This document shows, in pieces, positions 1-53,377 of a DNA stretch of 64,000 nt. Position 1 is the stretch's first letter. The number at the start of each line of letters is the position of its first letter. The stretch spans positions 98,342 to 162,341 of the IMG/VR virus record IMGVR_UViG_3300028786_000006, one strand, 5' to 3'. A program made the translations under genes and the position numbers. Below the pieces are notes generated by a model. That model was not told where the DNA came from, searched no databases, and worked only from the letters and a program-made list of their open reading frames with translations. Source of the DNA: a virus.

Positions 1-984
1 ATGGGCCTCCCAACGGATCTGAGCCTTATTACGACAAACATGACCCCAGCCAAGCTGGCCCGTGTTTGTGCCGCCCTTGACCGCGAGAGCCCCCACCGGG
101 CGGACATCAAGTGGAACGAAACCACTGAGCTGGCCGGCTACCTCCATGCCAAATTCACTCTTCATGGCGAGACGTACACGCTGGACGAAGAGTTTGAAAT
201 GGTCAAGAGCATGTACCTGGAACCGTGTCGCCGCCAGCCGGCGGGACCGTTCATGTCGGTTGTGCGCGGTACGTCAGGCACCGGCAAGGGCACCCGCGTT
301 TGCCAGGTGCTGGAATACCTGAAGACCAAGTTCGAACCAACCACTCTGAACTTCGAGTTCGAAGGGAAGACCAAGCAGTACGGTATCTGCTTCGAAGACC
401 TCAAACTGATCTTCATCGGCACCACGACCAAGTCCAACAAGTCAGGTCTGTCCAGCTGGTCGTCTATGGACTACATCCATAGCACCGTGAAGAAGGCAGA
501 AAACGCCCGGCCGATCGCCAAGTCATGGATCGAAAAGGGCTACAGCCTGGTCCTGGAAGGCGAGCCAATGATGCAGTCGGACAAGTTCCGACCGTTGTTC
601 ATGCAACCTTACTTCGGCGTCGCCCGCTTCCTGATGCCTCACTATTGGTACCAGAACCGTGAACAATATGACGAGCGCATCATGGGGCGGTCGGGTAAAC
701 TTGCTGGCGATAGTGGTTGGGGCCGCAACGAGTCGTATAAGCGAGAGTATGAACGCACCCTGGAAGAGCTTCAGGAGCTGGAGCTGGATGCTACCGGTTG
801 CACACTGCTCCCTCACGACGCGCCCCTGGAGGGCTACGGTGCCTCACTGCTGGCATACCTTGGGCGTGCTGACCTCATTGACGAATTCGTCCGATGGACA
901 GCTGAGAACCCAATGCTCCGGTCGATAGGCGGCGGCAACCCGCTGGCCACGACCAACAACGTCTTCGACATCTTCGGTGCATGA
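1..984 (+). CDS. P-loop kinase, probable 5-hydroxymethyluridine DNA kinase (5-HMUDK-like); may be 5'-partial
   Basis: Walker A VRGTSGTGKGT, LVLEG Walker-B-like strand, lid-like ERIMGRSG. Overlaps the amino acid:DNA transferase gene. The ATG sits at the window edge. Confidence 0.7.
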   Translation: MGLPTDLSLITTNMTPAKLARVCAALDRESPHRADIKWNETTELAGYLHAKFTLHGETYTLDEEFEMVKSMYLEPCRRQPAGPFMSVVRGTSGTGKGTRVCQVLEYLKTKFEPTTLNFEFEGKTKQYGICFEDLKLIFIGTTTKSNKSGLSSWSSMDYIHSTVKKAENARPIAKSWIEKGYSLVLEGEPMMQSDKFRPLFMQPYFGVARFLMPHYWYQNREQYDERIMGRSGKLAGDSGWGRNESYKREYERTLEELQELELDATGCTLLPHDAPLEGYGASLLAYLGRADLIDEFVRWTAENPMLRSIGGGNPLATTNNVFDIFGA

Positions 985-2209
985 CATGATAGTTGAAAAG
1001 CAGTACAAACACCCGGCCCTGTCGGAGTTCATCTACCCCATCGAAAAGGGCGTGGACTACCGGCTGAAAGAAAACCGGGCGCACCTCGCCTTTGCCTGGC
1101 AAGAAACCCTCTGCTACACCGAGGAGCACAACCAGCAGCTTCGGTTGATGCTTTGGGCCATCGACAACCAGGACATCAGCGCCGTGCGCGCCCTGGAACA
1201 GAAGCTGTGGTGTGCGTTCCTGTGGGGTTGCTGCTACAACCTGATCGGCCCGTGGGCCATCATGCAAGAGTACCCTGAGCCCCCACGCGGTAAGGACGGC
1301 CTGCAGCGATTCGCTGACTGGTACAACAAGAATTTCGACCGGATGCGCTTCGATACCGACTGCCGCTACCGCAAGTCGAAAATGATCGCATGCGTGACCA
1401 GCTATGTCGAATGGCTGGAGGGTAAGGACCAGTTCGCGGCCTTCGCCCCGATCATTCAGCTGGGTAACAAGAAAGAGCAGTTCCAGCAACTATGGGACGC
1501 TTGTAACAGCTGGAAGTTCTTCGGTCGACTGAGCAACTGGAACACCATCGAGGCGATCGAGCTCGCCACCGACCACCATTACAAGATCGACATCCCATCG
1601 TTCATGTTGACGGACGTCAGTGGTTCTGAGTCCAATCGCAACGGCGCGGCCTTCCTGGCTGGTCACGACGAGCTTGTCACTAAGCACGGCAAGCGCAAGG
1701 ACACTGGTGAGACCATCAGCCAGGCGGACTGTGAGAAGCTCGAAGTTTTGGCTGAAATGTACTTCCAGCAGGCCAAAGCCGACCTGGGCCACCTCAGCTT
1801 CATCAACCGTCTGAACGCCGAGACCAGCATCTTCTGTTGGTTCAAGAAGTTCTTCCGTCTGAAGTCCACCCGTTATGTGGGCTGGGATGGCGAGCGGACT
1901 TACGAAGAGCTGCAGTACATGCATCGGGAATGGCCTGAAGCCAACCTGGAGCCTCTGTGGGAAGCGCGGTATGCCCTGCTCCCAGACTTCCTGCTATGTG
2001 AACAGGCGCCCGAGGGCGAGCAGCGCGGCGTGAACAAAGCCAAGATGCCGCTGTTCTACGAGACCGGCTTCCCCGAGCACATCTACAAGTTCCAGCGCGG
2101 TGAACGTTGGTCGTTCCCCGAAGTAATCACCACCCCGGCCCGCAAACCAGCCCTAAACAAACCGACTGTCGCGGATACCACCCACAGCCTCAACGACTTC
2201 TTCGGATAA
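977..2209 (+). CDS. Amino acid:DNA transferase (aGPT-Pplase2/ADDT family) for thymidine hypermodification
   Basis: GVDYRL..NR, FDTDCRYRK, HhH-like FFGRLSNW and DVSGSESNRNG motifs typical of ViI/M6-type transferases. Confidence 0.8.
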   Translation: MHDMIVEKQYKHPALSEFIYPIEKGVDYRLKENRAHLAFAWQETLCYTEEHNQQLRLMLWAIDNQDISAVRALEQKLWCAFLWGCCYNLIGPWAIMQEYPEPPRGKDGLQRFADWYNKNFDRMRFDTDCRYRKSKMIACVTSYVEWLEGKDQFAAFAPIIQLGNKKEQFQQLWDACNSWKFFGRLSNWNTIEAIELATDHHYKIDIPSFMLTDVSGSESNRNGAAFLAGHDELVTKHGKRKDTGETISQADCEKLEVLAEMYFQQAKADLGHLSFINRLNAETSIFCWFKKFFRLKSTRYVGWDGERTYEELQYMHREWPEANLEPLWEARYALLPDFLLCEQAPEGEQRGVNKAKMPLFYETGFPEHIYKFQRGERWSFPEVITTPARKPALNKPTVADTTHSLNDFFG

Positions 2210-2212
2210 CCC

Positions 2213-2389
2213 ATGATCTACAAGAAAGACGACCGCCCGGATTGCCCGGCCTGCGGTGACCCCCTTGACGAGACCTGCAAAGAGCTTGCCAAGGCCGGCG
2301 GTACGCACAACCACTACTGTGGTGCTGTGTACACAGTTCGTAAACTCAACAACGGTCAATATGACGTTGCCTATGACGGGAATGCGTAA
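2213..2389 (+). CDS. Small Zn-ribbon-like protein (58 aa, below ORF-track cutoff)
   Basis: MIYKKDDRPDCPACG...HNHYCG. Fills the gap exactly and its TAA overlaps the next ATG. Confidence 0.65.
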   Translation: MIYKKDDRPDCPACGDPLDETCKELAKAGGTHNHYCGAVYTVRKLNNGQYDVAYDGNA

Positions 2390-2952
2390 TGAGCAAGAAG
2401 ATGAAGGCGCAGCACGCGCTTATCACTGAACACTTTTCGAAGCTGGACGGTGTCCACTACCTGCGTCTGACCGATGCGACCCTGGTCGCCAAAATGACCG
2501 ATGACCAGATCCTGTCGTTCTGTGGGCATCACCTGTCTAAGCAGACAGGGCTGCCGGTGCGTGGCCTGGCGGTTGCCCCCGGCTTCCACCTGACCGCCAA
2601 GAGCATGATGTACTTCAACTTCAACTTCTTCAACACCGACGACTCGATCTCGGCAGTTGAGCTGCGCGGTAAGCTGCGTTCGAAGTTGGAACCACACCAG
2701 GCCGGCCACTACCCCGAGCTGTTCCGCTTCGGCGTGGGTAAGGCTGACTTCTTCTGGGTGGTGGGTGAAGTTGACCGCAGCACCCAGATCGTGCGCTTCT
2801 CGTACGTTGGTCACGTCGACCGCCCGGCAACCTTCTTCCGACGCATCCGGGTCAGCCGCGAAATGGCTCCTGGGCAGCTGACCAACGTACGCCAGTCGAC
2901 TCACTACATCGACCCGGAATACAAGAAGCAGTATGTGTCGGAGCTGGCATAA
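2389..2952 (+). CDS. Hypothetical protein within hypermodification operon
   Basis: TAATG-coupled on both sides, with phage-like codon usage. Confidence 0.6.
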   Translation: MSKKMKAQHALITEHFSKLDGVHYLRLTDATLVAKMTDDQILSFCGHHLSKQTGLPVRGLAVAPGFHLTAKSMMYFNFNFFNTDDSISAVELRGKLRSKLEPHQAGHYPELFRFGVGKADFFWVVGEVDRSTQIVRFSYVGHVDRPATFFRRIRVSREMAPGQLTNVRQSTHYIDPEYKKQYVSELA

Positions 2953-4130
2953 TGCAAGGGCGCCCGGCTGATATTCGTTACAATGGCGTCCGCCCTGACA
3001 AGATCGACAACGCCAATCCGAAGCTTAACCAAAAGAACCTGGGCCGGTGCTTGGATTGGATCGTCGAGCGCTACAAGATCCACGTGAAGAAAGACGTCCT
3101 GGGCCTACCCTCGCCCTGGACGGAAGACCCGGTACTACGGGACCACAAGTTCACGAACGTCCGGAGAGAGCACGACAGGGAGTCCAAGCACGTCATTCGT
3201 GGCATCTGCGAGAACCCATCCCTGTCGATGGAACAGAAGGTCCAAAACCTGATCATGTTCCGAATGTTCAATGTTTGGTCCACGGTCGAATTGATCGGCG
3301 GCCCCTTCACCAACTTCGGGTCGATTGACCTGGACGCGGTGCGGGCAAAGCTGAAGGTGGTTGATGGTGAGCGAGTGTTCACCAACGCCTTCAACTGCGG
3401 TGGCCTGAAGCAATGCCTGGCCTTTCCTGATCTCGATTATGTCAACCATGCGCACCAGCGCCGGGGTGGCATGATGGTCAAGGTGATGGACCTCCCGAAC
3501 ATGGCTGAGTCGGAAATGGACTACAAGGTAGCCCGTGACCTGGCGCAAGCTGAGCCCGATCGGTACTCCATCGAAGGGTGGGAACCGAACATGGCGATGC
3601 GGGTGGTTCGTTACCTGAACACCTTCTTCAAGAACAACCCAAACTGGGTGTCTGAGTTCTTGATGTCGAGCACTCAGAAGGCGGCGTTCCTGAAGCTGAA
3701 TGAAGTGCGAGGCATCAGCGAGTTCCTGGGTTACCAGATCTTCGTCGACTGCACGTACTGCCCGGAGTACCCGTTCAGCGAGAACGAGTTCACCATCGCC
3801 GGGCCGGGTTGTAAGATGGGCCTGGACTTCATCTTCGATGATCGCGACGGAATGACGTACGAGGAGTGCATCTTCTGGCTCCGCGATCATCAGGAAGAGT
3901 TGCTCTGGGACTTGAAGAGTGTTCACCACTCCGAGTTCATGGACGACCAATACGTCGAAGAGCAAACGTTCAGTGTCATGTCGTGGGAAAACGTCATGTG
4001 CGAGACGAGCAAGTACATCCGCTGTATGGATGCCCTGGAACGCGGTGACAAGCCTCGCACCAGGGTTAAGTTCAACGGCGGCGCAAGCAAAGCACCGTCA
4101 ACCACCAAATCAGTGCTGGACCTCTTCTGA
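2952..4130 (+). CDS. aGPT-Pplase1 family (HhH-glycosylase-like, hmdU-kinase-associated helical domain) protein
   Basis: ER..I...K......PWTEDPVLRDHKFTNVRREHDR, FRMFN, FLGYQIFVD, AGPGC..GL and ENVMCE.SKY motifs. Confidence 0.85.
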   Translation: MQGRPADIRYNGVRPDKIDNANPKLNQKNLGRCLDWIVERYKIHVKKDVLGLPSPWTEDPVLRDHKFTNVRREHDRESKHVIRGICENPSLSMEQKVQNLIMFRMFNVWSTVELIGGPFTNFGSIDLDAVRAKLKVVDGERVFTNAFNCGGLKQCLAFPDLDYVNHAHQRRGGMMVKVMDLPNMAESEMDYKVARDLAQAEPDRYSIEGWEPNMAMRVVRYLNTFFKNNPNWVSEFLMSSTQKAAFLKLNEVRGISEFLGYQIFVDCTYCPEYPFSENEFTIAGPGCKMGLDFIFDDRDGMTYEECIFWLRDHQEELLWDLKSVHHSEFMDDQYVEEQTFSVMSWENVMCETSKYIRCMDALERGDKPRTRVKFNGGASKAPSTTKSVLDLF

Positions 4131-4150: not shown

Positions 4151-4513
4151 ATGATCAACCGCCTGAAACGGCTATTCGGGCGCAAGCCCAACCCGTCTCT
4201 ACAGCTCCAACAGCAACAATCCCGCGCCGGTCGTATACCACCTCCCACACCGGAGTTGGTCAAATACAACGATGAATTCCCCCTGAGTGCGTTCAATACG
4301 CCCAGGCAATCCAGAATCGTTGATACCATCCGTGATGTACCGGCTGAACGCGACCCAAGCCCGCCTCATGTACCTCGGGTCGCCTACGTTGAACGTGACG
4401 TGAGTGCATATGAAGCCCCGGTTCACCACCAAAGCGATAGCCATAGCCGTTGTGGCGGCGGGGATAGCCCTACGAGTGGCGATAGCGGTTCTCCTTGCGG
4501 GGGTACTGACTAA
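4151..4513 (+). CDS. Hypothetical low-complexity protein
   Basis: AGGAG SD; Ser/Gly/Asp-rich C-terminus. Confidence 0.55.
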   Translation: MINRLKRLFGRKPNPSLQLQQQQSRAGRIPPPTPELVKYNDEFPLSAFNTPRQSRIVDTIRDVPAERDPSPPHVPRVAYVERDVSAYEAPVHHQSDSHSRCGGGDSPTSGDSGSPCGGTD

Positions 4514-5128: not shown

Positions 5129-5812
5129 ATGACCCAGCAAGTAAAACTCTCCAAGGATACTCTTGAAGTCCTCAAGATGTTCAGCACCATCAACGGTAGC
5201 CTGGCATTCAAAGCCGGCAATAAGCTGCGCACCATCTCCCCAGGCGGCGGCGCGGTCTTTGCAGAAGTTGAGATCCCGGAAGAGTTCCCGATCCCTTTCA
5301 ACATCTACGAGCTGAACCGCTTCTTGAGCGTGTTGAGCCTGGCGACCATGAAAGAAGCCGTGCTCGAATTCAGCGACGACAAAAAGGTCGTGATCAAAGG
5401 CACCGGCGGCACCAAGATCAATTACTACTTCACCAGCGACTCCTTCGTCACGGCGCCGGACCGCGAGCTGAAGCTGCCAAGTGTTGACCTCGACGTCACC
5501 CTGACCCCGGAAGTGATCGACGGTTTCATGCGTGCTGCCAGCGCCCTGGGCCACAAGATCATGGCTTTCACCGTTCGCGGCGACGAAGCGTTCCTGGTCG
5601 GCACCAGCCCTGAGCTGGGCGATGCGTCCAACGACTACGAAGTCAGCCTGGGTACGGTTGAAGGCGCTTCTGAAGGCACCTACCGCCTGAAGATCGAGAA
5701 CATCAAGCTGTTGGCCGGCGACTACCGCGTCCAAGTCTGTGCTCGCGGCATGGTGGCCTTCTCCAACGAACAGCGCAAGCTCAAGGTGTTCGTCGGTCTG
5801 GAAATGGTCTAA
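5129..5812 (+). CDS. 45: Sliding clamp (T4 gp45-like)
   Basis: KLSKDTLEVLKMFSTIN, GNKLRTIS, FNIYELNRFL, ENIKLLAGDY; synteny 45-44-62-regA. Confidence 0.95.
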   Translation: MTQQVKLSKDTLEVLKMFSTINGSLAFKAGNKLRTISPGGGAVFAEVEIPEEFPIPFNIYELNRFLSVLSLATMKEAVLEFSDDKKVVIKGTGGTKINYYFTSDSFVTAPDRELKLPSVDLDVTLTPEVIDGFMRAASALGHKIMAFTVRGDEAFLVGTSPELGDASNDYEVSLGTVEGASEGTYRLKIENIKLLAGDYRVQVCARGMVAFSNEQRKLKVFVGLEMV

Positions 5813-5882
5813 TCGGCCACCCCGCTTGAAATCAGGTTGACCAACGGTTGACCTGATACACCCCGCTAACTTGAGGTTAAAC

Positions 5883-6833
5883 ATGTCGCAGCAAGAACAC
5901 ATCTGGGCTCAAAAGTACCGTCCCACCACCATCAGCGATATCATCCTGCCGGCCGGCCTGGTTAACGAACTGGCCAACTACGTCAAGGATGGCAAAGCGC
6001 CTCACCTGCTCCTCGCCAGCCGCTTGCCGGGCACCGGTAAGACCACCCTGGCCCTGGCCCTGTGTGCTGACCTGGGTGCAAACCCTCTGGTGATCAACGC
6101 CAGCCTGAACAACAGCATCGACGACATCCGCTCCAATGTGACCCAGTACGCTACCGGCGTATCCGTCATGGGCGGCCCGAAGATCGTTGTCCTGGACGAA
6201 GCCGAGCGTCTGTCCCAGGCCGCCCAAGAAGCCCTCAAAGGCATCCTCGAGGCTGTCTCCAAGAACTGCACGTTCATCCTTACGACCAACAACCCTCAGC
6301 GTATCATTGAGCCGCTGCGCGATCGTTGCATCGTCAAGGAATTCGTCTGGTCGGCCGAAGACACCACCGCCATGCGTGCCAAGATGATGCGCCGCTGCGC
6401 TGAAATCCTGACTGCTGAAGGCGTGACCTTCAAGCCGGCGGCCCTGGCCGGTGTTGTCAAGAAGCACTTCCCGAGCAACCGCCGTATCCTGAACACCCTT
6501 CAGGAATACTCGAACCAGTTCGACAAGAACATCGACGAAGGCATCCTGGGTATGCTCAACGTGGGTGACGTTGACAACCTGCTCGAAGCCCTGGTCAAGA
6601 AGGACTTCCAGGCCGTCAAAGAGTGGTGCTCCACCAACGCAGACCAGTTGTCTGACGGCATCTACCTCAAGCTGTTCGAAACCCTCAAGGACAGGCTGCA
6701 CCCTCAATCGGTGCCGCAGTTGATCTTGACCCTGGGCGACTTCCAGCGTTTCCACGCAACGGTCCCTGATCTGTTCATCCACAGCCTTGCGCTGATGACT
6801 ACCATCATGGCCGACTGCACCTTCACCAAGTAA
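5883..6833 (+). CDS. 44: Clamp loader large subunit (gp44-like AAA+)
   Basis: WAQKYRP, PGTGKTT, VVLDEAE and LRDRC motifs. Confidence 0.95.
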   Translation: MSQQEHIWAQKYRPTTISDIILPAGLVNELANYVKDGKAPHLLLASRLPGTGKTTLALALCADLGANPLVINASLNNSIDDIRSNVTQYATGVSVMGGPKIVVLDEAERLSQAAQEALKGILEAVSKNCTFILTTNNPQRIIEPLRDRCIVKEFVWSAEDTTAMRAKMMRRCAEILTAEGVTFKPAALAGVVKKHFPSNRRILNTLQEYSNQFDKNIDEGILGMLNVGDVDNLLEALVKKDFQAVKEWCSTNADQLSDGIYLKLFETLKDRLHPQSVPQLILTLGDFQRFHATVPDLFIHSLALMTTIMADCTFTK

Positions 6834-6845
6834 GGGGCGACTGCT

Positions 6846-7262
6846 ATGGCTGACGATGGTAAAATTGGACTGTTTGATTGGCTCAACGCCTTGAACAGCT
6901 CCAAAACCGAGCTGATGGTAGACGAGGCGAGTGAGAAGTCGTTCGACCCGTTCATTATCCGCCGGGGCGTTGCCCAGAACATGGACACCGTCCTCCTCGC
7001 GCAAGAGATGAACAAACTCCACGCCCTGCCAAAGCGGATGGTGCATGACTTCTTTATGAAGGCCATCACCAGGAAGAAGCGGTACGGGAAGTGGGCAAAG
7101 AAAGAGGTGGTGGACTCGGGTATTACCGTGATCTCCGCCTACTATAAGGTCTCCATCCGGGAGGCCACCGAATACGCCAAGCTGATGACCCCAGAGCAGA
7201 TCAAAGAGCTCGAAGGTCGGATGGACCAAGGCGGCCGCAAGGGCGAAAAGAGCGGCAAGTGA
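6846..7262 (+). CDS. 62: Clamp loader small subunit (gp62-like)
   Basis: LFDWLN, PFIIRR, AQEMN, KKRYGKWAK, YYKVS; synteny. Confidence 0.93.
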   Translation: MADDGKIGLFDWLNALNSSKTELMVDEASEKSFDPFIIRRGVAQNMDTVLLAQEMNKLHALPKRMVHDFFMKAITRKKRYGKWAKKEVVDSGITVISAYYKVSIREATEYAKLMTPEQIKELEGRMDQGGRKGEKSGK

Positions 7263-19570: not shown

Positions 19571-19813
19571 ATGAAAACTCTGTACAGCATCACCGGCCGG
19601 GAACAGGATGTGCGCATTCTGACTAGCTTAACTGAAGTCCGGGAAGAGGTCGTCGCTTTCAGCGGCACCGGCCCAGAAGCTTGCTGGATCAGTGCTGACC
19701 CGCTGAGTAACCTGAACCAGCGCGACGGCAAACTGAAAATTCGACAGCTGGACGGTTGCGGTGTGTTCGAACACAACATCGTTGTTATCCAGCGCCACGA
19801 CGTCAACATCTAA
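19571..19813 (+). CDS. Hypothetical protein
   Basis: GGAGG SD before the ATG at 19571. Confidence 0.6.
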   Translation: MKTLYSITGREQDVRILTSLTEVREEVVAFSGTGPEACWISADPLSNLNQRDGKLKIRQLDGCGVFEHNIVVIQRHDVNI

Positions 19814-19838
19814 ACAAGCTCTCACTGAGGAGAACACC

Positions 19839-20996
19839 ATGCAACCTGCGATCAATAGTACCATCTTCGACACCCTGTCCATCAACCGTGCCAAGTCCCG
19901 TTGGGACGAGCACCTGTTCGACATGGTGCCTGTGCAAGAACTGGCCAACCCGGTAACCGGTCAAACCATGAAGTTCAAGCGTGGCGACTACTTCGCCCCC
20001 CTGGGCTACGGTGGCATCAACGGCGACAAGCTACGAGTGGCTATCCACATCCTGAGCGAGCACGCCAAGCGCGGCGGTGCCAAGTTGCTGGCCCACGGTA
20101 CAGTCATGGGCTCCCCACAGTCCCCGATGGCCGCTGCAGTTGCCCGCCACTTCGACTACAAGACCATCACCGTCCTGGGCGGCACCAAGCCTGAGACCTG
20201 CATCAAGAAAGACACCATTCAGATGGCCGCCTGGTTCGGCAGCGAGTTCGCCTTCGTGGGCAACGGCTACAACAACGTCATCCAGCCTCGTGTTCAGAAG
20301 ATCCTGGCTGAGCGAGCGCCGACCGGCTTGTACCTCGAGTACGGCATCACCCTGGACCACAACAAACACCCGGCGGCCGACATCGCAGCCTTCCATGGCA
20401 TCGGTGCTGAGCAAGTACAGAACATCCCTGACGACGTCGACACCCTGGTCATCCCGTTCGGCTCGGCGAACTCCGGCACCTCCATCCTGCTGGGCCTGTG
20501 CAAGTATCCCAAGCCCAACATCAAGGAAGTGGTCCTGGTAGGCATCGGCCCCAACCGCGTACGCTTCATGCAAGAGCGCCTGGCGGTTATCGGTAAGCAT
20601 CTGGGCATCGACACCGACATGTTCGACCTGACCGAGACTGACAAGGTCGAAGTGAACAAGACGGCAGACATCGCCAACTTCTTCGACGGCGGGCCGACCA
20701 CGCGGGCCAAGTATTACCGCATGACCCACTATGACCTGCACTCCACCAAGTACGTTGAGTACAATGACCTGATGGAATACAACTGGAACGGCCTGGAGCT
20801 GCACCCTCGATACGAAGGCAAGGTGATGACCTACCTCCAGGAAAAGCATCCTGAACTGATCCGCCCAACCGCGCTGTTCTGGATCGTCGGCAGCAAGCCG
20901 CGCATCGAGCCGATGCTGGCCAGTATGGGCCACGAGATCAGCGAGGAAGCCCCGACTGCAGTCGACCTGCTGACTCCGGTACAAGCGGCGGCGTAA
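19839..20996 (+). CDS. PLP-dependent (fold type II, cysteine-desulfhydrase-like) enzyme; probable amino acid:DNA decarboxylase of the hypermodification pathway
   Basis: FKRGDYFAPLGYGGINGDKLR (PLP lysine), SPQ, PFGSANS, HPRYEGK, LFWIVGS; start chosen by CACTGAGGAG SD. Confidence 0.85.
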   Translation: MQPAINSTIFDTLSINRAKSRWDEHLFDMVPVQELANPVTGQTMKFKRGDYFAPLGYGGINGDKLRVAIHILSEHAKRGGAKLLAHGTVMGSPQSPMAAAVARHFDYKTITVLGGTKPETCIKKDTIQMAAWFGSEFAFVGNGYNNVIQPRVQKILAERAPTGLYLEYGITLDHNKHPAADIAAFHGIGAEQVQNIPDDVDTLVIPFGSANSGTSILLGLCKYPKPNIKEVVLVGIGPNRVRFMQERLAVIGKHLGIDTDMFDLTETDKVEVNKTADIANFFDGGPTTRAKYYRMTHYDLHSTKYVEYNDLMEYNWNGLELHPRYEGKVMTYLQEKHPELIRPTALFWIVGSKPRIEPMLASMGHEISEEAPTAVDLLTPVQAAA

Positions 20997-22103: not shown

Positions 22104-22433
22104 ATGACCCGCCACGACCCTTTGATTATGGAAGACCAACAGAAGCACGACAACAGACGCGGTAAGATCGCTCTGTCTCTCGCAGCTGCTCTAGCCATGG
22201 TAGGCGGCCCAACATCAGGGATCCCCTTCTTTGGCCCGGCACCCCGGTCCTTCCGCCCACGCCCCCAAGCCACGCCAGAACAGATCGCGGCTGGTTTGAA
22301 GGCAAGCGCTGAAGCCAAGCTCAAGCGAGAAAAACGTCGTCTTCGTAATGTTCGCCATTCCGGAGCCTCCCCAACGCATGTCAATCCACCAATCCCTCGA
22401 CTTCAATGTGATTCAGGGCAAGTCGACCTCTGA
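22104..22433 (+). CDS. Hypothetical basic protein
   Basis: GGAG SD; AEAKLKREKRRLRN. Confidence 0.5.
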   Translation: MTRHDPLIMEDQQKHDNRRGKIALSLAAALAMVGGPTSGIPFFGPAPRSFRPRPQATPEQIAAGLKASAEAKLKREKRRLRNVRHSGASPTHVNPPIPRLQCDSGQVDL

Positions 22434-23532
22434 TACCATCTACCAGGCGTATGACGCCATCTTGACCCGAGGCGTTGATGTTCAGACCCGCAATGGGGCC
22501 GCTCGAACAATCTTCAACGCTTTGATGTTCACCGAAAACCCACGCCACCGCCACCTGGCCCTTGAAGGCCGCAGCTCCAACATCTTCCAAATGATGGCGG
22601 AAACCCTCTGGGTGCTGTCTGGTAGCGGCCGCGTCACCGGGTTCCTTGAGTACTTCTTGCCTCGCGCTTTGAACTATTCCGACGACGGCGTAAGCTGGCG
22701 CGGCGCCTACGGCCCACGTCTGCTGCGTAACAACCAGCTCGACGCAGCGGTTGAAGCCTTCGTACAGGATGGTCTGCAAACCCGCCGGGCAATCGTGTCG
22801 ATCTTCGACCCTTCCCTGGACACCCAGGACGCCCTGAAAGAAGTCTATGGTCTGGACAACACCAAGGACTTGCCGTGCAACCTTCTGCTGAACTTCTACA
22901 CCGACGCCCTGGGCCGCTTCTGTGTGAAGCTGGTTCAACGTTCTGGTGACGTGTTGTTCGGCGCCGGTAGCATCAACCCGTTTGAGTTCACGCTCATTCA
23001 AGAGCTGGTCTATCAGAAGGTTCGCCAACACTACCCAGGCCTCCAGCTCGGCCCGTTCGTTCATGACGTGACCAACCTCCACGTCTACGAGCAGTTCAAA
23101 CCCCAGGCCCAAAAGGCTTGCGGTACGCCCCAGGTCGCATTGGGCCACAACACCGATCTGGCCTGCCAGGAAGCCTGGAACGTCTGCTCATTTGAAGAGC
23201 TGGCCTATACCCTGGAAGCGTTCGTTGATGCCGCCGAGGACTTCATTCGGTCCCCGAGCCGCGATACCAGCGACGCCTTTGAACGCCAGTTCGCCCTGAC
23301 TGCTCAAAAGATCAACCACTCGATGGATAGCGCTGACAATCTTCTGATTGACTACGCCTTCATCACCATGCGTTACCTGCAGGCTAAATTGTTGCCTAGC
23401 GTCCTTGAACATAAGCGCATCGGCCTCTGCAAGCATGCGCCGGAAGACTTGATTTTGGCTATCAAACAATCCAAATTCAACCCTTTCGACCGAGTTATCA
23501 TCTATGACGGCAGCTTCGCCTCTCTGCAGTAA
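22378..23532 (+). CDS. Thymidylate synthase-fold enzyme, probable dUMP hydroxymethylase
   Basis: TRNG, AETLWVLSG, YSDDG..WRGAYGPR, TRRA, KDLPCN, QRSGD, NPFEF and NLHVYE; hmdU-phage context. Confidence 0.85.
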   Translation: MSIHQSLDFNVIQGKSTSDTIYQAYDAILTRGVDVQTRNGAARTIFNALMFTENPRHRHLALEGRSSNIFQMMAETLWVLSGSGRVTGFLEYFLPRALNYSDDGVSWRGAYGPRLLRNNQLDAAVEAFVQDGLQTRRAIVSIFDPSLDTQDALKEVYGLDNTKDLPCNLLLNFYTDALGRFCVKLVQRSGDVLFGAGSINPFEFTLIQELVYQKVRQHYPGLQLGPFVHDVTNLHVYEQFKPQAQKACGTPQVALGHNTDLACQEAWNVCSFEELAYTLEAFVDAAEDFIRSPSRDTSDAFERQFALTAQKINHSMDSADNLLIDYAFITMRYLQAKLLPSVLEHKRIGLCKHAPEDLILAIKQSKFNPFDRVIIYDGSFASLQ

Positions 23533-26186: not shown

Positions 26187-27296
26187 ATGTCTGACCTGAT
26201 GAAACGAATGCTGGCCGTCACCAAAAAGGACGGCCGCGTCACCACCCTGGATGAGTCGCAGTATGCTGACAAATCCGTCGTGGCGTCAACCGATGTACCG
26301 ATGTTGAACGTCGCCATGAGCTCCAAGGTTGACGGCGGTCTGATCCCCGGCCTCACTATGGTGGTAGGTGAAAGCCGTACCTTCAAAAGTAACTTCTGCG
26401 TCAAGGCCATGGCGGCCTACCTGCGCAAGTTCCAGGACGCGATCGCCATCTTCGCTGACTGTGAGTTCGGCGCCGCCAAGAAGCTGTTCACCAAGTACGG
26501 CATCGATCCGAAGCGCGTCATCCACATGCCTTTCGAGGACGTGGAAGAGATGAAGATCAAGCTGACCAAATCGATCAATGCGATCGAAGAAGGCGACCAC
26601 GTCTTCATTATGGTCGACTCGGTCAGCCAGGTGGCATCCCGCAAGGAGTCGGAAGACGCCGAGAACGAGAAAGTCACCCAGGACATGACCCGCGCCCGCG
26701 CCCTGAACAGTTTCTGGCGTATCATTACGCCGAAGCTGACCCTGCGCGGCATCCCGATGTTCGCGATCAACAGCTTCTACGAGGACATCGGCAACAAGTA
26801 CGCCGACCCGATCATCAAGGGCGGTAAGCAGGGCTTCCTGAGCTGCGACCAGGTGTGGTTCATTAGCCGTCGCCAGATCAAGGACGAAGCGAGCAAGGCC
26901 CTCCAGGGCTGGGACTTCGTGATCAACATCATGAAAGGCCGGTTTGTCAAGGAAAAGGCCAAGATCGTTATCACCGTGCTGTTCGACGGCGGTATCTCGC
27001 GCTGCTCCGGTCTGCTGGAAATCGCCCGCCTGGGTGGGTTCGTTGAGATGTACGCTGGGTCGCGCTACCGCCGCACGGCGTTGTGTGGGTTCAAGTCGGA
27101 CCCTGGCCTCTTCAAGAAAGAGATCGCCGACAACTGGGAGTGGTGGGAGCCTGTGGTTGAGAACCCGGCGTTTGCTGCGTACGTTGAGCGCTTCTATGGC
27201 ATCAACGAAAGCATGGTGATGCTGGACGAGATCGATTTCGACGAAGAAACCGGCCTGGTCAAGTCTGTCGCTGGTGTTGCTACGGCAGCTGAGTAA
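26187..27296 (+). CDS. uvsX: RecA-like recombinase UvsX
   Basis: PMLNVAMS...GGL.PGLT..VGESRTFKS, DCEFG, VDSVSQ.AS.KE, DMTRAR, KGRFVKEK. Confidence 0.95.
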   Translation: MSDLMKRMLAVTKKDGRVTTLDESQYADKSVVASTDVPMLNVAMSSKVDGGLIPGLTMVVGESRTFKSNFCVKAMAAYLRKFQDAIAIFADCEFGAAKKLFTKYGIDPKRVIHMPFEDVEEMKIKLTKSINAIEEGDHVFIMVDSVSQVASRKESEDAENEKVTQDMTRARALNSFWRIITPKLTLRGIPMFAINSFYEDIGNKYADPIIKGGKQGFLSCDQVWFISRRQIKDEASKALQGWDFVINIMKGRFVKEKAKIVITVLFDGGISRCSGLLEIARLGGFVEMYAGSRYRRTALCGFKSDPGLFKKEIADNWEWWEPVVENPAFAAYVERFYGINESMVMLDEIDFDEETGLVKSVAGVATAAE

Positions 27297-27342
27297 CACG
27301 AACCGGGGGTTGGTTGCCGGCCCCCGGCCTCTGGAGTAGCGT

Positions 27343-27663
27343 ATGTCCTCGCCTCAAGCCCTCCACAAGTTCTTCGTTGACCCAGACGAAGTTGATTGTC
27401 CGACGTTGGTTGTCACGCGTGGCCCGCTTGCCGGGCGAACGATCAAGGTGACCAACATCGACGGAGCCCAGGAAGCTGCTGGGCAACACATCGAATTAAC
27501 GTTCTACTACGATCTGCTCAGCAATGACAGCTCGGAGAGCATCCGTGAGTTCAGGAAAGGTGATACCCCGACCCTTGACGACACCCATAAGGCTGTCAAC
27601 GAGGTCATCGTGGCTTACATCCTGAGCATCACCGGGGACGACGATGGCGATCCGCCATCTTAG
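27343..27663 (+). CDS. Hypothetical protein in the gp40 position
   Basis: Synteny uvsX-40-41; GGAG SD. Confidence 0.45.
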   Translation: MSSPQALHKFFVDPDEVDCPTLVVTRGPLAGRTIKVTNIDGAQEAAGQHIELTFYYDLLSNDSSESIREFRKGDTPTLDDTHKAVNEVIVAYILSITGDDDGDPPS

Positions 27664-40677: not shown

Positions 40678-43600
40678 ATGTCTGTAACACTCGCTCAACT
40701 GCGTGAACTGAAGCCCATGACCCGAGCCGAAGAGTTTGAATTGCGTGAGGCTGAGTCCAGGCGCCGCTTCCCCCTCAAGTGGGAGCTCCAGGTTGGTGAC
40801 CAGATCATCGCCACTGAAGACGCCCGCTACGAGAAGCACATCAGCGCTGAGCAGCATTACTCCCAGCGCGTGGGCCACATCATCCGTGTGAACAACCCCA
40901 AGATGAATGGGATCACTGGTGGTCACGGGATCTACGGCATGTCCCACACCGGGCGATCCATCCTGGGCTATGGCTCAAGCCTGAATGATGGCACCTACCG
41001 CCGGGCAACCCATGATGACGTAGGCTACATGGACACTCGTGAGGGCTGGATCAAGGTGCTCGGTGATGAAGCCAAGTCTGAGCGAATCCAGAGCTTCTGT
41101 TACGGCGTGGTTGCCTTGCTGGCTCTGGGTGCGTTAGCCTTGTCTCACCTCCAACACATCGGACTTTGAACCAACATGAATGCACTTGCGCTGTTCAAGA
41201 ATCAACAGGAGGCGACCATGACCCGCCTTCGCCAAGCCACGCACCTCTTCAATGAGCTGGCCCCGGCTACCCGTGAGCGCTTGATGCCGTTGATCCTGGC
41301 CGGTAGTAAGGGCGTCCCATTGAGCACCCTGACCAGCTATGAAGGTGAGTCCTTCGCCCGCTGGAAGGATGAACATGGCCTGATGCTTGAGGGGATGGGC
41401 TACCACCTACACCTGTCGGGGTTCACCAACGTCCGCCCGGCCCAGGTCTTCTGTACCATCGATGTCGGCTTCGTCCAGGACTTGGCCCTCTTTCAACAGC
41501 TGGTGGTGGAAGGCCGCCGTGACCGAGACCCACTATGGTGCTGATCAAACTGTGGAACCGATTGACCGGGCGCGACAAGCTGCTCGCACGAATCGATGAA
41601 CTGGAATCCCAGGTGTATGCCATGGAAGACCAGATCATCGGCCTTCAAGAGATTATGGAAGAACACGGAGAACCCGTATGACGCATTCGAATATGCCCAA
41701 GCAGTGGAAGCGCTGGTTCAAGAAAGCCGGCCTGAAGTCTGAATACAGCTCCAAGCTGGCCCGCAACTATGGTATCACGTACCTCAAGGGTCATGGACGC
41801 TACTGGCGCCTGGATGACGGCGGTTACCTTGACATGAGCGAGCGCTTCGAACAGTTTGATCGCTGGGCCAACAGCCTTGAGGCCAGTGTGCCAATGGATG
41901 CCAAGAACGAAGCTGGGTTCAGTAAGCTGGTCGAGCGCTTGCTCCCACCCTATGAGCGCCTGATGTTCCAGTACCGACACCGTGTCCTACGCATCAACGC
42001 GAAGGCCCTCGTGAAACAGTTGAAGAAGGTCAACTTGAACCAGGCTTTCGGGCGGATGGGGCGAGGTGCCGACGTCCTGTTGTACCTGGACTCCATCCCA
42101 GCCGAGCGCGCCGCTTCCCCTGCACAGATCGGCACCATCTGTTACGACGACTCTGATCTGTTCCACCCGCTGAGCGATGAAGCTGAGCAAGCCAGCCGCG
42201 CCAACATGCGTGTTCTGAAGCCCCGCCCCAAGGGTGAGATCGAACTGATCACCTGCGGTGTTGACAAAGGCCGCTCCATCTTCTTCGGCAACCCCCTCCC
42301 TCAGCACCTGAAGGGCCTGGTGGCGTTGCCTCCAATGTACCGTGGTGAACCCGGTCCGTCCGTCCAGGAGCAGATGGAAGAGCTGAAGCTGTGCATGGCC
42401 ACGACCCCTACCATCCAGCAGATCGCCGACGCCTGTAATGCTGGTATCATTCCTGAGGACCATGAACTGATGTTCACTGGGTCAGCCCCAGGTGTATCTG
42501 GTCGATGCGAACGCGACCGCCCACTGAGCGACCCAGTGCCAGACTCTGAACGTTTCAACCTTCGCCGTGAGTACCGCGACGCCCCGCTGGATGTCACGAC
42601 CCTGGGTTCCCGTGTCCGTGAGTACTTCCGCCCATGAGCCGTCAGATCTGGGTATGGGATGAGGGGCATTGCGGTGCCCTGGTATGTGTTGCCTCTGACC
42701 GCCAGGAAGCCGTGGACAAGTTCACTGAACAGAAGCCTGACTGGGACTTCAGCCTACCGAAGCAACGTGGCCAGCGCATGAAGTCCTATGAGCTCGATGA
42801 AGTCGCCGTGACCCGAGGGTATGAACCATGAACCATCCACCGATCGTCCTCCCTGACCCCGACTGGGTAGAGCTGGCCCGTATCGCCTCAGCTGACCCTA
42901 CGCATGCCTCTGCTGCCCCTGGAGCTGGCTTCGCGTCGTCGGCATTGTATATCAGCTGCCATCGTGGGCACCACATCTACGCGGCAACCGGCTCCGGCCC
43001 GTTCGTGTTTGGTGCTCACACTGTCAAGGCCCCCAACGACCTGGCCATCCATCTGAGCTCAGCCCTGTACTACTGTGATGGGCGCTGGTTCAACACTGCC
43101 TGGTCTGCCACCTGCTACATTGATGAGAAACTGTCGCCATGAACCCAACCAATCGCCAACTCGCTGAACGCATCGACTCCCTGCTGGCCCTGGATGAACG
43201 GGGTGCGCTTGTGCCCCACGGCTTGGGCGGCCTTGCCCGCTCGCTGCTGATCCAGTCCTCGTGTGCTCTGAAGGGCCTCCGCAAGATTAGTGCTGACATC
43301 CCAGCCGACCTGTTCATGCTGATCCAGGCCGAAGCAGATCAGCGAGGCGCCACCACTGACCAGACCTGTCGTGAGCTGTACTGTGAAGGCACCCTGATGT
43401 ACCAGCGGAAGTCTGAGCATTATGACCCCAACGAGTTCATGGAGCACTGGTACACCCGCTTCGCCCAGTACACCGGGGCTCCAGGCACCATCTACCTGGA
43501 GGTCAACGCCAAGCGCGCTCAGGCCGTCCATGGCATCGCCAACGCGATGTGCCGTGTGACCCCATCCATGAACACCATGATGATCGCTGCTGGCCTGTGG

Positions 43601-52497: not shown

Positions 52498-52609
52498 GCG
52501 CCCTGGGGAGGAATCCTCGGGGCGTTTTATTTTGAACTATTTTGTTCTGAGGGGTTGCGTTGGTTCAAGAACAGAGTATACTGAGCTCACACCAACCCTC
52601 TCACTGAGG
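52498..52609 (+). promoter_or_regulatory. Terminator + early promoter cassette
   Basis: GC hairpin + TTTTATTTT; GAGGGG-TTGCGT-16-TATACT-GAGCTCA; CACTGAGG at 52602. Confidence 0.85.
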
Positions 52610-52618
52610 AGCAGCAAC

Positions 52619-52897
52619 ATGACAACATTAACCGAAACCGCAGTGGCCCGCGCATTCGCCCAGGCCGTATCGTCCCACGCCGTAACCGTCACTACCATGC
52701 AAGCCAGCATCTGGTTGTTCGGTGGCTGCGCATTGGAACCGGAAATCGATGCGTACCTGAACAGCATCGCGGGTGTTCACGGGTACATCCTCGGGGAAAG
52801 CGACTTCAATCGCGAGAAGTTTGTCGACTTCATGACCCCTCTCGTTGGCGACGAAGTTGCCGCCCGCGCCGCCGACATCGTCGAAGATCAATTCTAA
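52619..52897 (+). CDS. Hypothetical early protein
   Basis: Cassette-driven. Confidence 0.7.
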   Translation: MTTLTETAVARAFAQAVSSHAVTVTTMQASIWLFGGCALEPEIDAYLNSIAGVHGYILGESDFNREKFVDFMTPLVGDEVAARAADIVEDQF

Positions 52898-52942
52898 TCT
52901 GCTGGCGCCCTGGGTAACCGGGGCGCACCTTGGAGCGTCATC

Positions 52943-53377
52943 ATGGTCAAGAACAACCGCTGGATCCCAACTCAGGCAGAATGTAACCTGATCAAAGAGG
53001 CCGCCTCGAAAGAATCGGAGCCGGGTCTGCCCGTTTCTGGCCTGAGCCTGGAGCCGGGTCAACGCGTATGTGTCACCAACCAGGATCGCCCGGTTCACAT
53101 CAACGTCTGTCTGGTGTCGGAGAAGACTGATCCGAAGGAGATGTCCTCGGATACCGACCTACACGACACGATCAGCTGGACCTACTTCCGCAAAGGGGTG
53201 GAGCTGGACGCCAATGGCCGGGCCATCGTGGACTTCTACATTCGCGCCCGCTCCCCCTTGGCCGAGGAGGCTCATGGGTGCTCCATCTTCGGTAACGTGG
53301 TGGTGCACTTCCACGAAGGCAAGATCGCTGGCATCCACGGTGTTGGGTTCGGACACCACCCTTACCCTATCGTCTGA
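52943..53377 (+). CDS. Hypothetical protein
   Basis: GGAG SD. Confidence 0.6.
   Translation: MVKNNRWIPTQAECNLIKEAASKESEPGLPVSGLSLEPGQRVCVTNQDRPVHINVCLVSEKTDPKEMSSDTDLHDTISWTYFRKGVELDANGRAIVDFYIRARSPLAEEAHGCSIFGNVVVHFHEGKIAGIHGVGFGHHPYPIV

Follow-up and report, generated by a model that had tools for sequence, protein, structure and literature searches.

Polymerase-type C-terminal tails on three thymidine hypermodification enzymes of a large phage as predicted docking peptides for its sliding clamp

Three predicted thymidine hypermodification enzymes of the phage in IMG/VR record IMGVR_UViG_3300028786_000006 end in the same kind of short peptide as the phage's own DNA polymerase, and we think it likely that these three tails are docking peptides for its gp45-type sliding clamp. 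The enzymes are a 5-hydroxymethyldeoxyuridine (5-hmdU) DNA kinase, an amino-acid:DNA transferase (AADT) and an aGPT-Pplase clade 1 protein (aGPT-Pplase1 or aGPT1), and their genes lie at the beginning of the window, by which we mean the whole 64,000-nucleotide stretch analyzed here, the final 64 kb (positions 98,342 to 162,341) of the 162,341-bp record. A sequence-only reading of the window had proposed that these enzymes are tethered to the clamp by their tails. The computed support for this docking consists of motif identity with gp43 and gp33, homology of the polymerase tail to a peptide crystallised on the RB69 clamp, predicted disorder of the tails, co-variation of the tails with the polymerase from lineage to lineage, and loss of the tails in phages that lack a clamp; the docking part of that proposal is supported by the match to gp43 and gp33, the co-variation and the absence in clamp-less genomes.

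All three enzymes have a linker followed by the pattern S/N-[LV]-x-D-[FIL]-F, which ends 0 to 2 residues before the stop codon, and the sequences and positions of the tails are confirmed as first read (Table 1). Motif statistics were derived from a six-frame translation of the entire genome, which comprises 181,646 residues. The motif [STN][LVIM].D[FILM]F occurs 10 times in this translation, and 6 of the 10 occurrences are at 0 to 2 residues from a stop (binomial P 5e-7). The motif S[LVIM].D[LIMF]F, which was set beforehand from the RB69 polymerase tail alone, has 7 occurrences, of which 5 are terminal (P 1.5e-6). This pattern of terminal tails is far beyond chance. The six genes with a terminal motif encode the kinase, AADT, aGPT-Pplase1, the family-B DNA polymerase (gp43), the late-transcription coactivator gp33 and a PHROG 4789 protein. 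Codons differ among the six tails, and so their likeness lies at the peptide level and does not reflect a repeated DNA element. Residues T384, T385, K386, S387 and D390 are invariant in close homologues of aGPT-Pplase1 while the linker varies, and the kinase tail is kept in Pseudomonas syringae phage Cygsa01 and in metagenomic relatives. Since the motifs are short and the linkers compositionally simple, the tails might be functionless, either low-complexity ends that are alike by chance or remnants of recombination. However, the terminal enrichment, the differing codons, the invariance of the motif where the linker drifts and the co-variation of independent motif types with the polymerase across five or more lineages (below) leave this explanation with very little probability.

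The terminal peptide of the enzymes recurs in the phage's established clamp clients. The gp43 of the phage aligns with the RB69 polymerase over its last 150 residues, to the very end, with R-K-A-S-V-M-D-F-F lying over K-K-A-S-L-F-D-M-F, and the final 9 residues correspond to RB69 polymerase residues 893-901. Crystals of the RB69 clamp in complex with the last 11 residues of the RB69 polymerase have been obtained, and the C-terminal epitopes of gp43, gp33 and gp55 are highly similar and interchangeable and are carried on divergent, probably unstructured linkers (PMC2988020, a review of T4 late transcription). In the present phage gp33 (84 amino acids, PF16805 E 6.9e-16) has the terminal motif, as does gp43 (both are encoded outside the window), and the late sigma factor gp55 (phrog_234 E 1.5e-50; genome positions 52551-53243, minus strand, outside the window) has a subterminal variant, S-I-F-D-E-F-F, 14 residues from its end. 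The comparison of enzyme tails with these proteins thus came out as the clamp proposal would have it. The 14 residues after the gp55 motif form an acidic extension, which is shorter in Cygsa01. A 188-aa protein that ends in M-I-D-L-L-D-N was considered as gp55 and ruled out, as it is a phosphohydrolase. The enzyme tails resemble the gp45-binding epitopes of T4 and RB69 gp43, gp33 and gp55 (1B8H) in that a short hydrophobic-acidic-aromatic peptide forms the very C-terminus, preceded by a linker that is flexible and variable; they differ in that the T4 and RB69 epitopes belong to replication and transcription factors, whereas those described here belong to DNA-base-modifying enzymes whose clamp binding is predicted from sequence.

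The proposed docking partner is encoded nearby. The clamp gene begins 1 kb downstream of aGPT-Pplase1 and is followed by the genes for the clamp loader proteins gp44 and gp62, in agreement with the first description of the locus, and its profile matches RB69 gp45 (1b77/1b8h) at 1.8e-41 and T4 gp45 (1czd) at 1.9e-39 in the PDB.

The sixth gene with a terminal motif encodes a Cys-rich PHROG 4789 protein of 85 amino acids (genome 18635-18892, minus strand, outside the window). It has homologues in the ViI-type phage CBA120 (28731-28973), Vibrio phage K469 (58202-58528) and Cygsa01 (109399-109710), and in 4 of 4 phages, the present one included, the protein bears the lineage-specific polymerase-type tail. 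This suggests that it is a conserved, hitherto unrecognised candidate clamp client. The terminase large subunit (genome 72168-73877, plus strand, outside the window), which ends in S-L-D-E-F-F-Q-N, was rejected as a seventh client; similar ends are present in Cygsa01, CBA120 and K469 whatever the tail type of their polymerases, and so the terminase tail is a separate conserved feature.

Predicted structures agree with tails that protrude from folded enzymes. The AlphaFold2 model of the transferase has a mean predicted local distance difference test score (pLDDT) of 89.0, and its last 27 residues (384-410) are below 50 except for a one-turn helix at the motif; that of aGPT-Pplase1 has a mean pLDDT of 83.6, and its last 20 residues (373-392) are below 50 with the same one-turn exception. 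The top PDB match of the transferase model by Foldseek is the 5-phosphomethyl-dU (5-PmdU) glycinyltransferase gp46 of phage PaMx11 (8z2n, probability 1.0, E 2.6e-3), and Foldseek gave no significant PDB match for the aGPT-Pplase1 model. Two cysteines of AADT, C129 and C287, are invariant in 20 homologues and are candidates for the published catalytic Cys.

We surveyed the C-termini of 120 aGPT1 proteins, 57 transferases and 145 kinase representatives, and found that they fall into several distinct tail classes or have no tail. Within a lineage the class follows that of the polymerase. Vibrio phage K469 has the class [KR][KR]-L-[WF] at the C-termini of its polymerase, gp33, kinase, AADT and aGPT1. 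In CBA120 the polymerase, kinase, AADT, aGPT1 and PHROG 4789 protein end in [VI]-[NS]-L-[LM]-x-x-[LM] plus Lys or Arg. In PhiW-14 the polymerase, gp33, kinase gp37 (YP_003358891) and the AADT and aGPT1 homologues end in L-[GA]-x-F-[FA]. The PhiW-14 kinase has no PF18747 match and was recognised by its protein accession and the table of the 2021 paper, where it is an experimentally validated kinase; the AADT was located by a profile search of the PhiW-14 record, which was not among the 45 records listed by tblastn with the AADT of the present phage. Two further PhiW-14 proteins (NC_013697), a PD-(D/E)XK exonuclease (gp32, 26496-27356) and a DUF4326 protein (81170-81487), also end in the polymerase-type G-L-G-x-F-F. 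Finally, in four uncultured IMG/VR phages (G043, G045, G021 and G031) the polymerase and those enzymes that were found (aGPT1 and AADT, and in G043 the kinase too) end in an acidic-Trp type, [DE]-[DE]-W. We ran a permutation test on best ungapped BLOSUM62 scores and kept mismatching lineages in it. Polymerase and aGPT1 tails that come from one genome resembled each other more closely than shuffled pairs did, with P 3e-5 over 15 records and P 3e-4 over 9 lineage representatives. This co-variation by lineage is the strongest evidence for the predicted role of the tails in clamp docking.

Homologues were also compared between genomes with and without a clamp. Of 50 IMG/VR records with an aGPT1 homologue, 25 reach a completeness of 90% or more; a clamp system was found in 10 of these and none in the other 15. 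Tails were measured as the extension of aGPT1 past a conserved [KR]-P-[KR] anchor; a hydrophobic character of the last 7 residues had been tried as the criterion and was dropped, since it misclassified K-K-L-W and D-E-W tails. The Pfam clamp family PF09116 was too insensitive for clamp detection (it misses G043, which phrog_223 detects), and the clamp system of G021 was called from a gp44-type loader at 2e-72. Among these 25 records, 9 of the 10 clamp-system records have an aGPT1 extension of 20 residues or longer, compared with 1 of the 15 others (Fisher P 4.6e-5, a value that overstates independence because the clamp-less set is largely one clade), with median extensions of 26 and 8 residues, respectively. 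Most clamp-less records are complete genomes of about 50 kb, and their aGPT1 ends a few residues past the anchor; their transferases end about 45 residues sooner than the tailed ones. The M6-like phage PAKlein3 and Ralstonia phage RP13 likewise have neither clamp nor tail. The tail is thus kept in clamp-encoding phages and absent from complete clamp-less genomes, as the sequence-only reading had anticipated, although exceptions exist. An internal negative control is provided by the dUMP hydroxymethylase of the present phage, a nucleotide-level enzyme of the same pathway, which has no tail.

Besides the clade bias, the following observations weigh against docking of these enzymes on the clamp. 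The ViI counterpart of the pathway's pyridoxal phosphate (PLP)-dependent enzyme acts on DNA, yet the enzyme of the present phage lacks a canonical terminal tail. The uncultured phage G013 encodes a clamp, yet its aGPT1 (locus L074, 4677 onward) has no tail and continues on its C-terminal side into a kinase-like domain (a fusion of 615 aa counted from the match start); the G013 transferase does bear a polymerase-type tail. In G008 (L069, L136) and G007 (L067, L140) the polymerase ends in V-N-V-[LF]-x-F, whereas the kinase, transferase and aGPT1 end in K-K-L-W. Contigs without clamp or loader, G027 (L089) and G032, G034 and G035 (L094, L096 and L097), have tail-like aGPT1 ends, S-M-E-E-M-F or Y-N-L-F-E-G; here either a clamp may have been missed on incomplete contigs or the enzymes may dock on the host clamp. 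Recombinant kinases and transferases of ViI, PhiW-14 and M6 are active on 5-hmdU DNA in vitro without a clamp (PMC8989533), and so the tail is not needed for catalysis. Lastly, the only phage precedent, T4 alpha-glucosyltransferase (alpha-GT), is in dispute. Its binding to gp45 was put forward in a 2004 report, as that report is cited in a 2025 preprint (bioRxiv 10.64898/2025.12.06.692756), and the preprint found no co-purification of alpha-GT and gp45 in vitro or in vivo, with enzymes that were C-terminally His-tagged; the precedent to which the sequence-only reading appealed was therefore not reproduced. Apart from these points, the PLP-dependent enzyme has a subterminal T-A-V-D-L-L, which is kept in Cygsa01 and absent from the CBA120 and K469 orthologues.

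The mismatches within single genomes also bear on the identity of the binding partner. In CBA120 gp33 (42859-43212) ends in K-K-L-I and the polymerase in V-N-L-L-x-M-M, and together with G008 and G007 this means that two tail types can coexist in one phage. A possible reason is that tails bind the clamp in two modes or at two sites. Coexisting types could also mean more than one receptor, as would be the case if the shared tail bound a common partner other than gp45, such as the single-strand-binding protein, a replication-factory scaffold or the host RNA polymerase. We consider a different partner very unlikely, since the clamp is the only established common partner of the gp43 and gp33 C-termini (PMC2988020), the present polymerase tail has its homologue in the peptide that was crystallised on RB69 gp45, and tails are lost exactly where clamp and loader are absent.

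In the model that we favor, in which the tails bind the clamp, each enzyme comprises a folded catalytic body, a flexible linker of about 15-25 residues and a six-residue hydrophobic-acidic-aromatic peptide of the polymerase/gp33 type. Gp44 and gp62 would load clamps at primer-template junctions, and each clamp trimer that remained on the new duplex would present as many as three pockets for binding. The kinase, transferase and aGPT-Pplase1 would be held in these pockets by their tails and slide with the ring. The kinase would convert 5-hmdU to 5-phosphomethyl-dU, and in the transferase step an amine or amino acid would displace the phosphate. The outcome would be that the enzymes are concentrated on new DNA and sequential steps take place near each other. 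Since the tail is of the polymerase type, DNA modification is probably physically tied to replication, and it is reasonable to infer that the clamp would make modification replication-coupled and processive.

Clamp binding might also serve another purpose. The tails could raise the local concentration of the enzymes in replication zones, they could compete with polymerase, gp33 or gp55 and so set when late transcription takes over from replication, or they could keep the enzymes inactive until clamps are loaded. In favor of such purposes, gp33 has the same tail and gp55 a variant of it, and these two proteins use the clamp in transcription, not in replication (PMC2988020); the enzymes are active in vitro without the clamp; and PMC8989533 describes modification in these phages as only partial. 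We nevertheless judge such purposes unlikely, because three consecutive enzymes that act on DNA have the tail and the enzyme that acts on nucleotides does not, which targeting to substrate explains more simply than regulation does.

A more far-reaching model, which we offer tentatively and with some doubt, would have the whole multi-step pathway assembled on the clamp trimer, with kinase, transferase and aGPT-Pplase1 in the three pockets and the labile phosphorylated intermediate passed on directly behind the fork. The tail would then be a lineage-specific "address code" that co-evolves with the clamp, about half of the recognisable clamp clients would be DNA-modification enzymes, and the PHROG 4789 protein and the PhiW-14 PD-(D/E)XK exonuclease and DUF4326 protein would be further clients.

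T4 alpha-GT, if it does ride the clamp, would be alike as a phage DNA-modifying enzyme that modifies DNA during replication; the present phage differs in showing an explicit, co-varying tail on three enzymes. To our knowledge no polymerase-like tail is known on T4 alpha-GT. The eukaryotic maintenance methyltransferase DNMT1 is tethered to PCNA by a PCNA-interacting peptide (PIP) box. It is similar in that a short clamp-binding motif recruits a DNA-modifying enzyme to freshly replicated DNA, and dissimilar in clamp family, motif (Qxx[IL]xxFF) and chemistry and in that one enzyme is tethered rather than a proposed multi-step pathway. Clamp "tool-belt" clients and short clamp-binding motifs in general have been described (PMC9690074). 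The thymidine hypermodification systems of ViI, PhiW-14, M6 and PaMx11 (PMC5889632, PMC8989533, PMC11472151) use the same families as are found here, namely 5-HMUDK, AADT/aGPT-Pplase2, aGPT-Pplase1, the PLP enzyme and dUMP hydroxymethylase. The main papers on hypermodification (2018, 2021, 2024 and 2026, including these three) do not mention the clamp, the replisome or C-terminal tails, and we found no publication in the literature searched that links aGPT-Pplase or hypermodification with a clamp.

The features of the window are collected in Table 1. The gene identities of the three enzymes hold as first proposed, and all three profile matches (PF18747, PF18724 and PF18723) exceed the curated family cut-off. 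The kinase gene starts at genome position 98270, 72 nt upstream of the window. Cygsa01, the nearest named relative, has about 80% nucleotide identity across 77% of the window's first 8 kb. The two small genes between the enzymes have no Pfam or PHROG match, and orthologues of them were found in Cygsa01 only. Between aGPT-Pplase1 and the clamp gene lies a 120-aa open reading frame (4151-4513) with a Ser/Gly/Cys-rich low-complexity end; it has no family match and no phmmer homologue (E 1e-4) in Cygsa01, CBA120 or K469, and the Cygsa01 gene in the equivalent position ends in a Ser/Gly run. Elsewhere in the window, the predicted pathway has a source of 5-hmdU, the thymidylate-synthase-like dUMP hydroxymethylase, and the PLP-dependent enzyme for downstream tailoring.

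Table 1. Hypermodification enzymes, their tails and linkers, and replication genes in the window (window coordinates)
Feature	Position	Strand	Evidence or detail
5-hmdU DNA kinase (P-loop, HMUD2 family)	1..984, 5' end cut by window	+	PF18747 E 3.5e-83, 279.7 bits; phrog_4409
Kinase tail (predicted docking peptide) N-V-F-D-I-F, then G-A, stop (982-984)	958..975	+	C-terminus ...TTNNVFDIFGA
Amino-acid:DNA transferase (AADT / aGPT-Pplase clade 2)	977..2209	+	PF18724 E 3.2e-44, 151.8 bits
Transferase linker, predicted disordered	2126..2185	+	Residues 384-403
Transferase tail (predicted docking peptide) S-L-N-D-F-F, then G, stop	2186..2203	+	C-terminus ...TTHSLNDFFG
Two small genes between enzymes (58 aa, 187 aa), both without tail	2213..2952	+	
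aGPT-Pplase clade 1 protein (aGPT-Pplase1, aGPT1; HMUDK_hel family; ViI gp160 type)	2952..4130	+	PF18723 E 1.1e-58, 199.3 bits
aGPT-Pplase1 linker, predicted disordered	4068..4109	+	Residues 373-386
aGPT-Pplase1 tail (predicted docking peptide) S-V-L-D-L-F, stop directly after	4110..4127	+	C-terminus ...TTKSVLDLF
gp45-type sliding clamp, proposed docking partner	5129..5812	+	phrog_223 E 2.5e-57
Clamp loader, gp44 (5871-6833) and gp62 (6846-7262)	5871..7262	+	
PLP-dependent enzyme, second modification locus	19761..20996	+	PF00291 E 2.7e-8, 33.9 bits, slightly below Pfam gathering cut-off of 35 bits
Thymidylate-synthase-like dUMP hydroxymethylase	22348..23532	+	PF00303 E 1.6e-11

The finding bears on the disputed question of T4 glucosyltransferase and gp45. 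It also supplies a sequence rule, "same tail as the polymerase", by which phage genomes can be searched for enzymes that act on DNA and for unrecognised clamp clients. Should the tails bind the clamp, thymidine hypermodification would be replication-coupled in large clamp-encoding phages; among these are PhiW-14, marine Vibrio phages and the ViI-type phages, which are used against Salmonella, Klebsiella and E. coli. Such coupling would account for fast protection of new DNA from host nucleases, and it may account for the partial substrate conversion by the purified enzymes in vitro.

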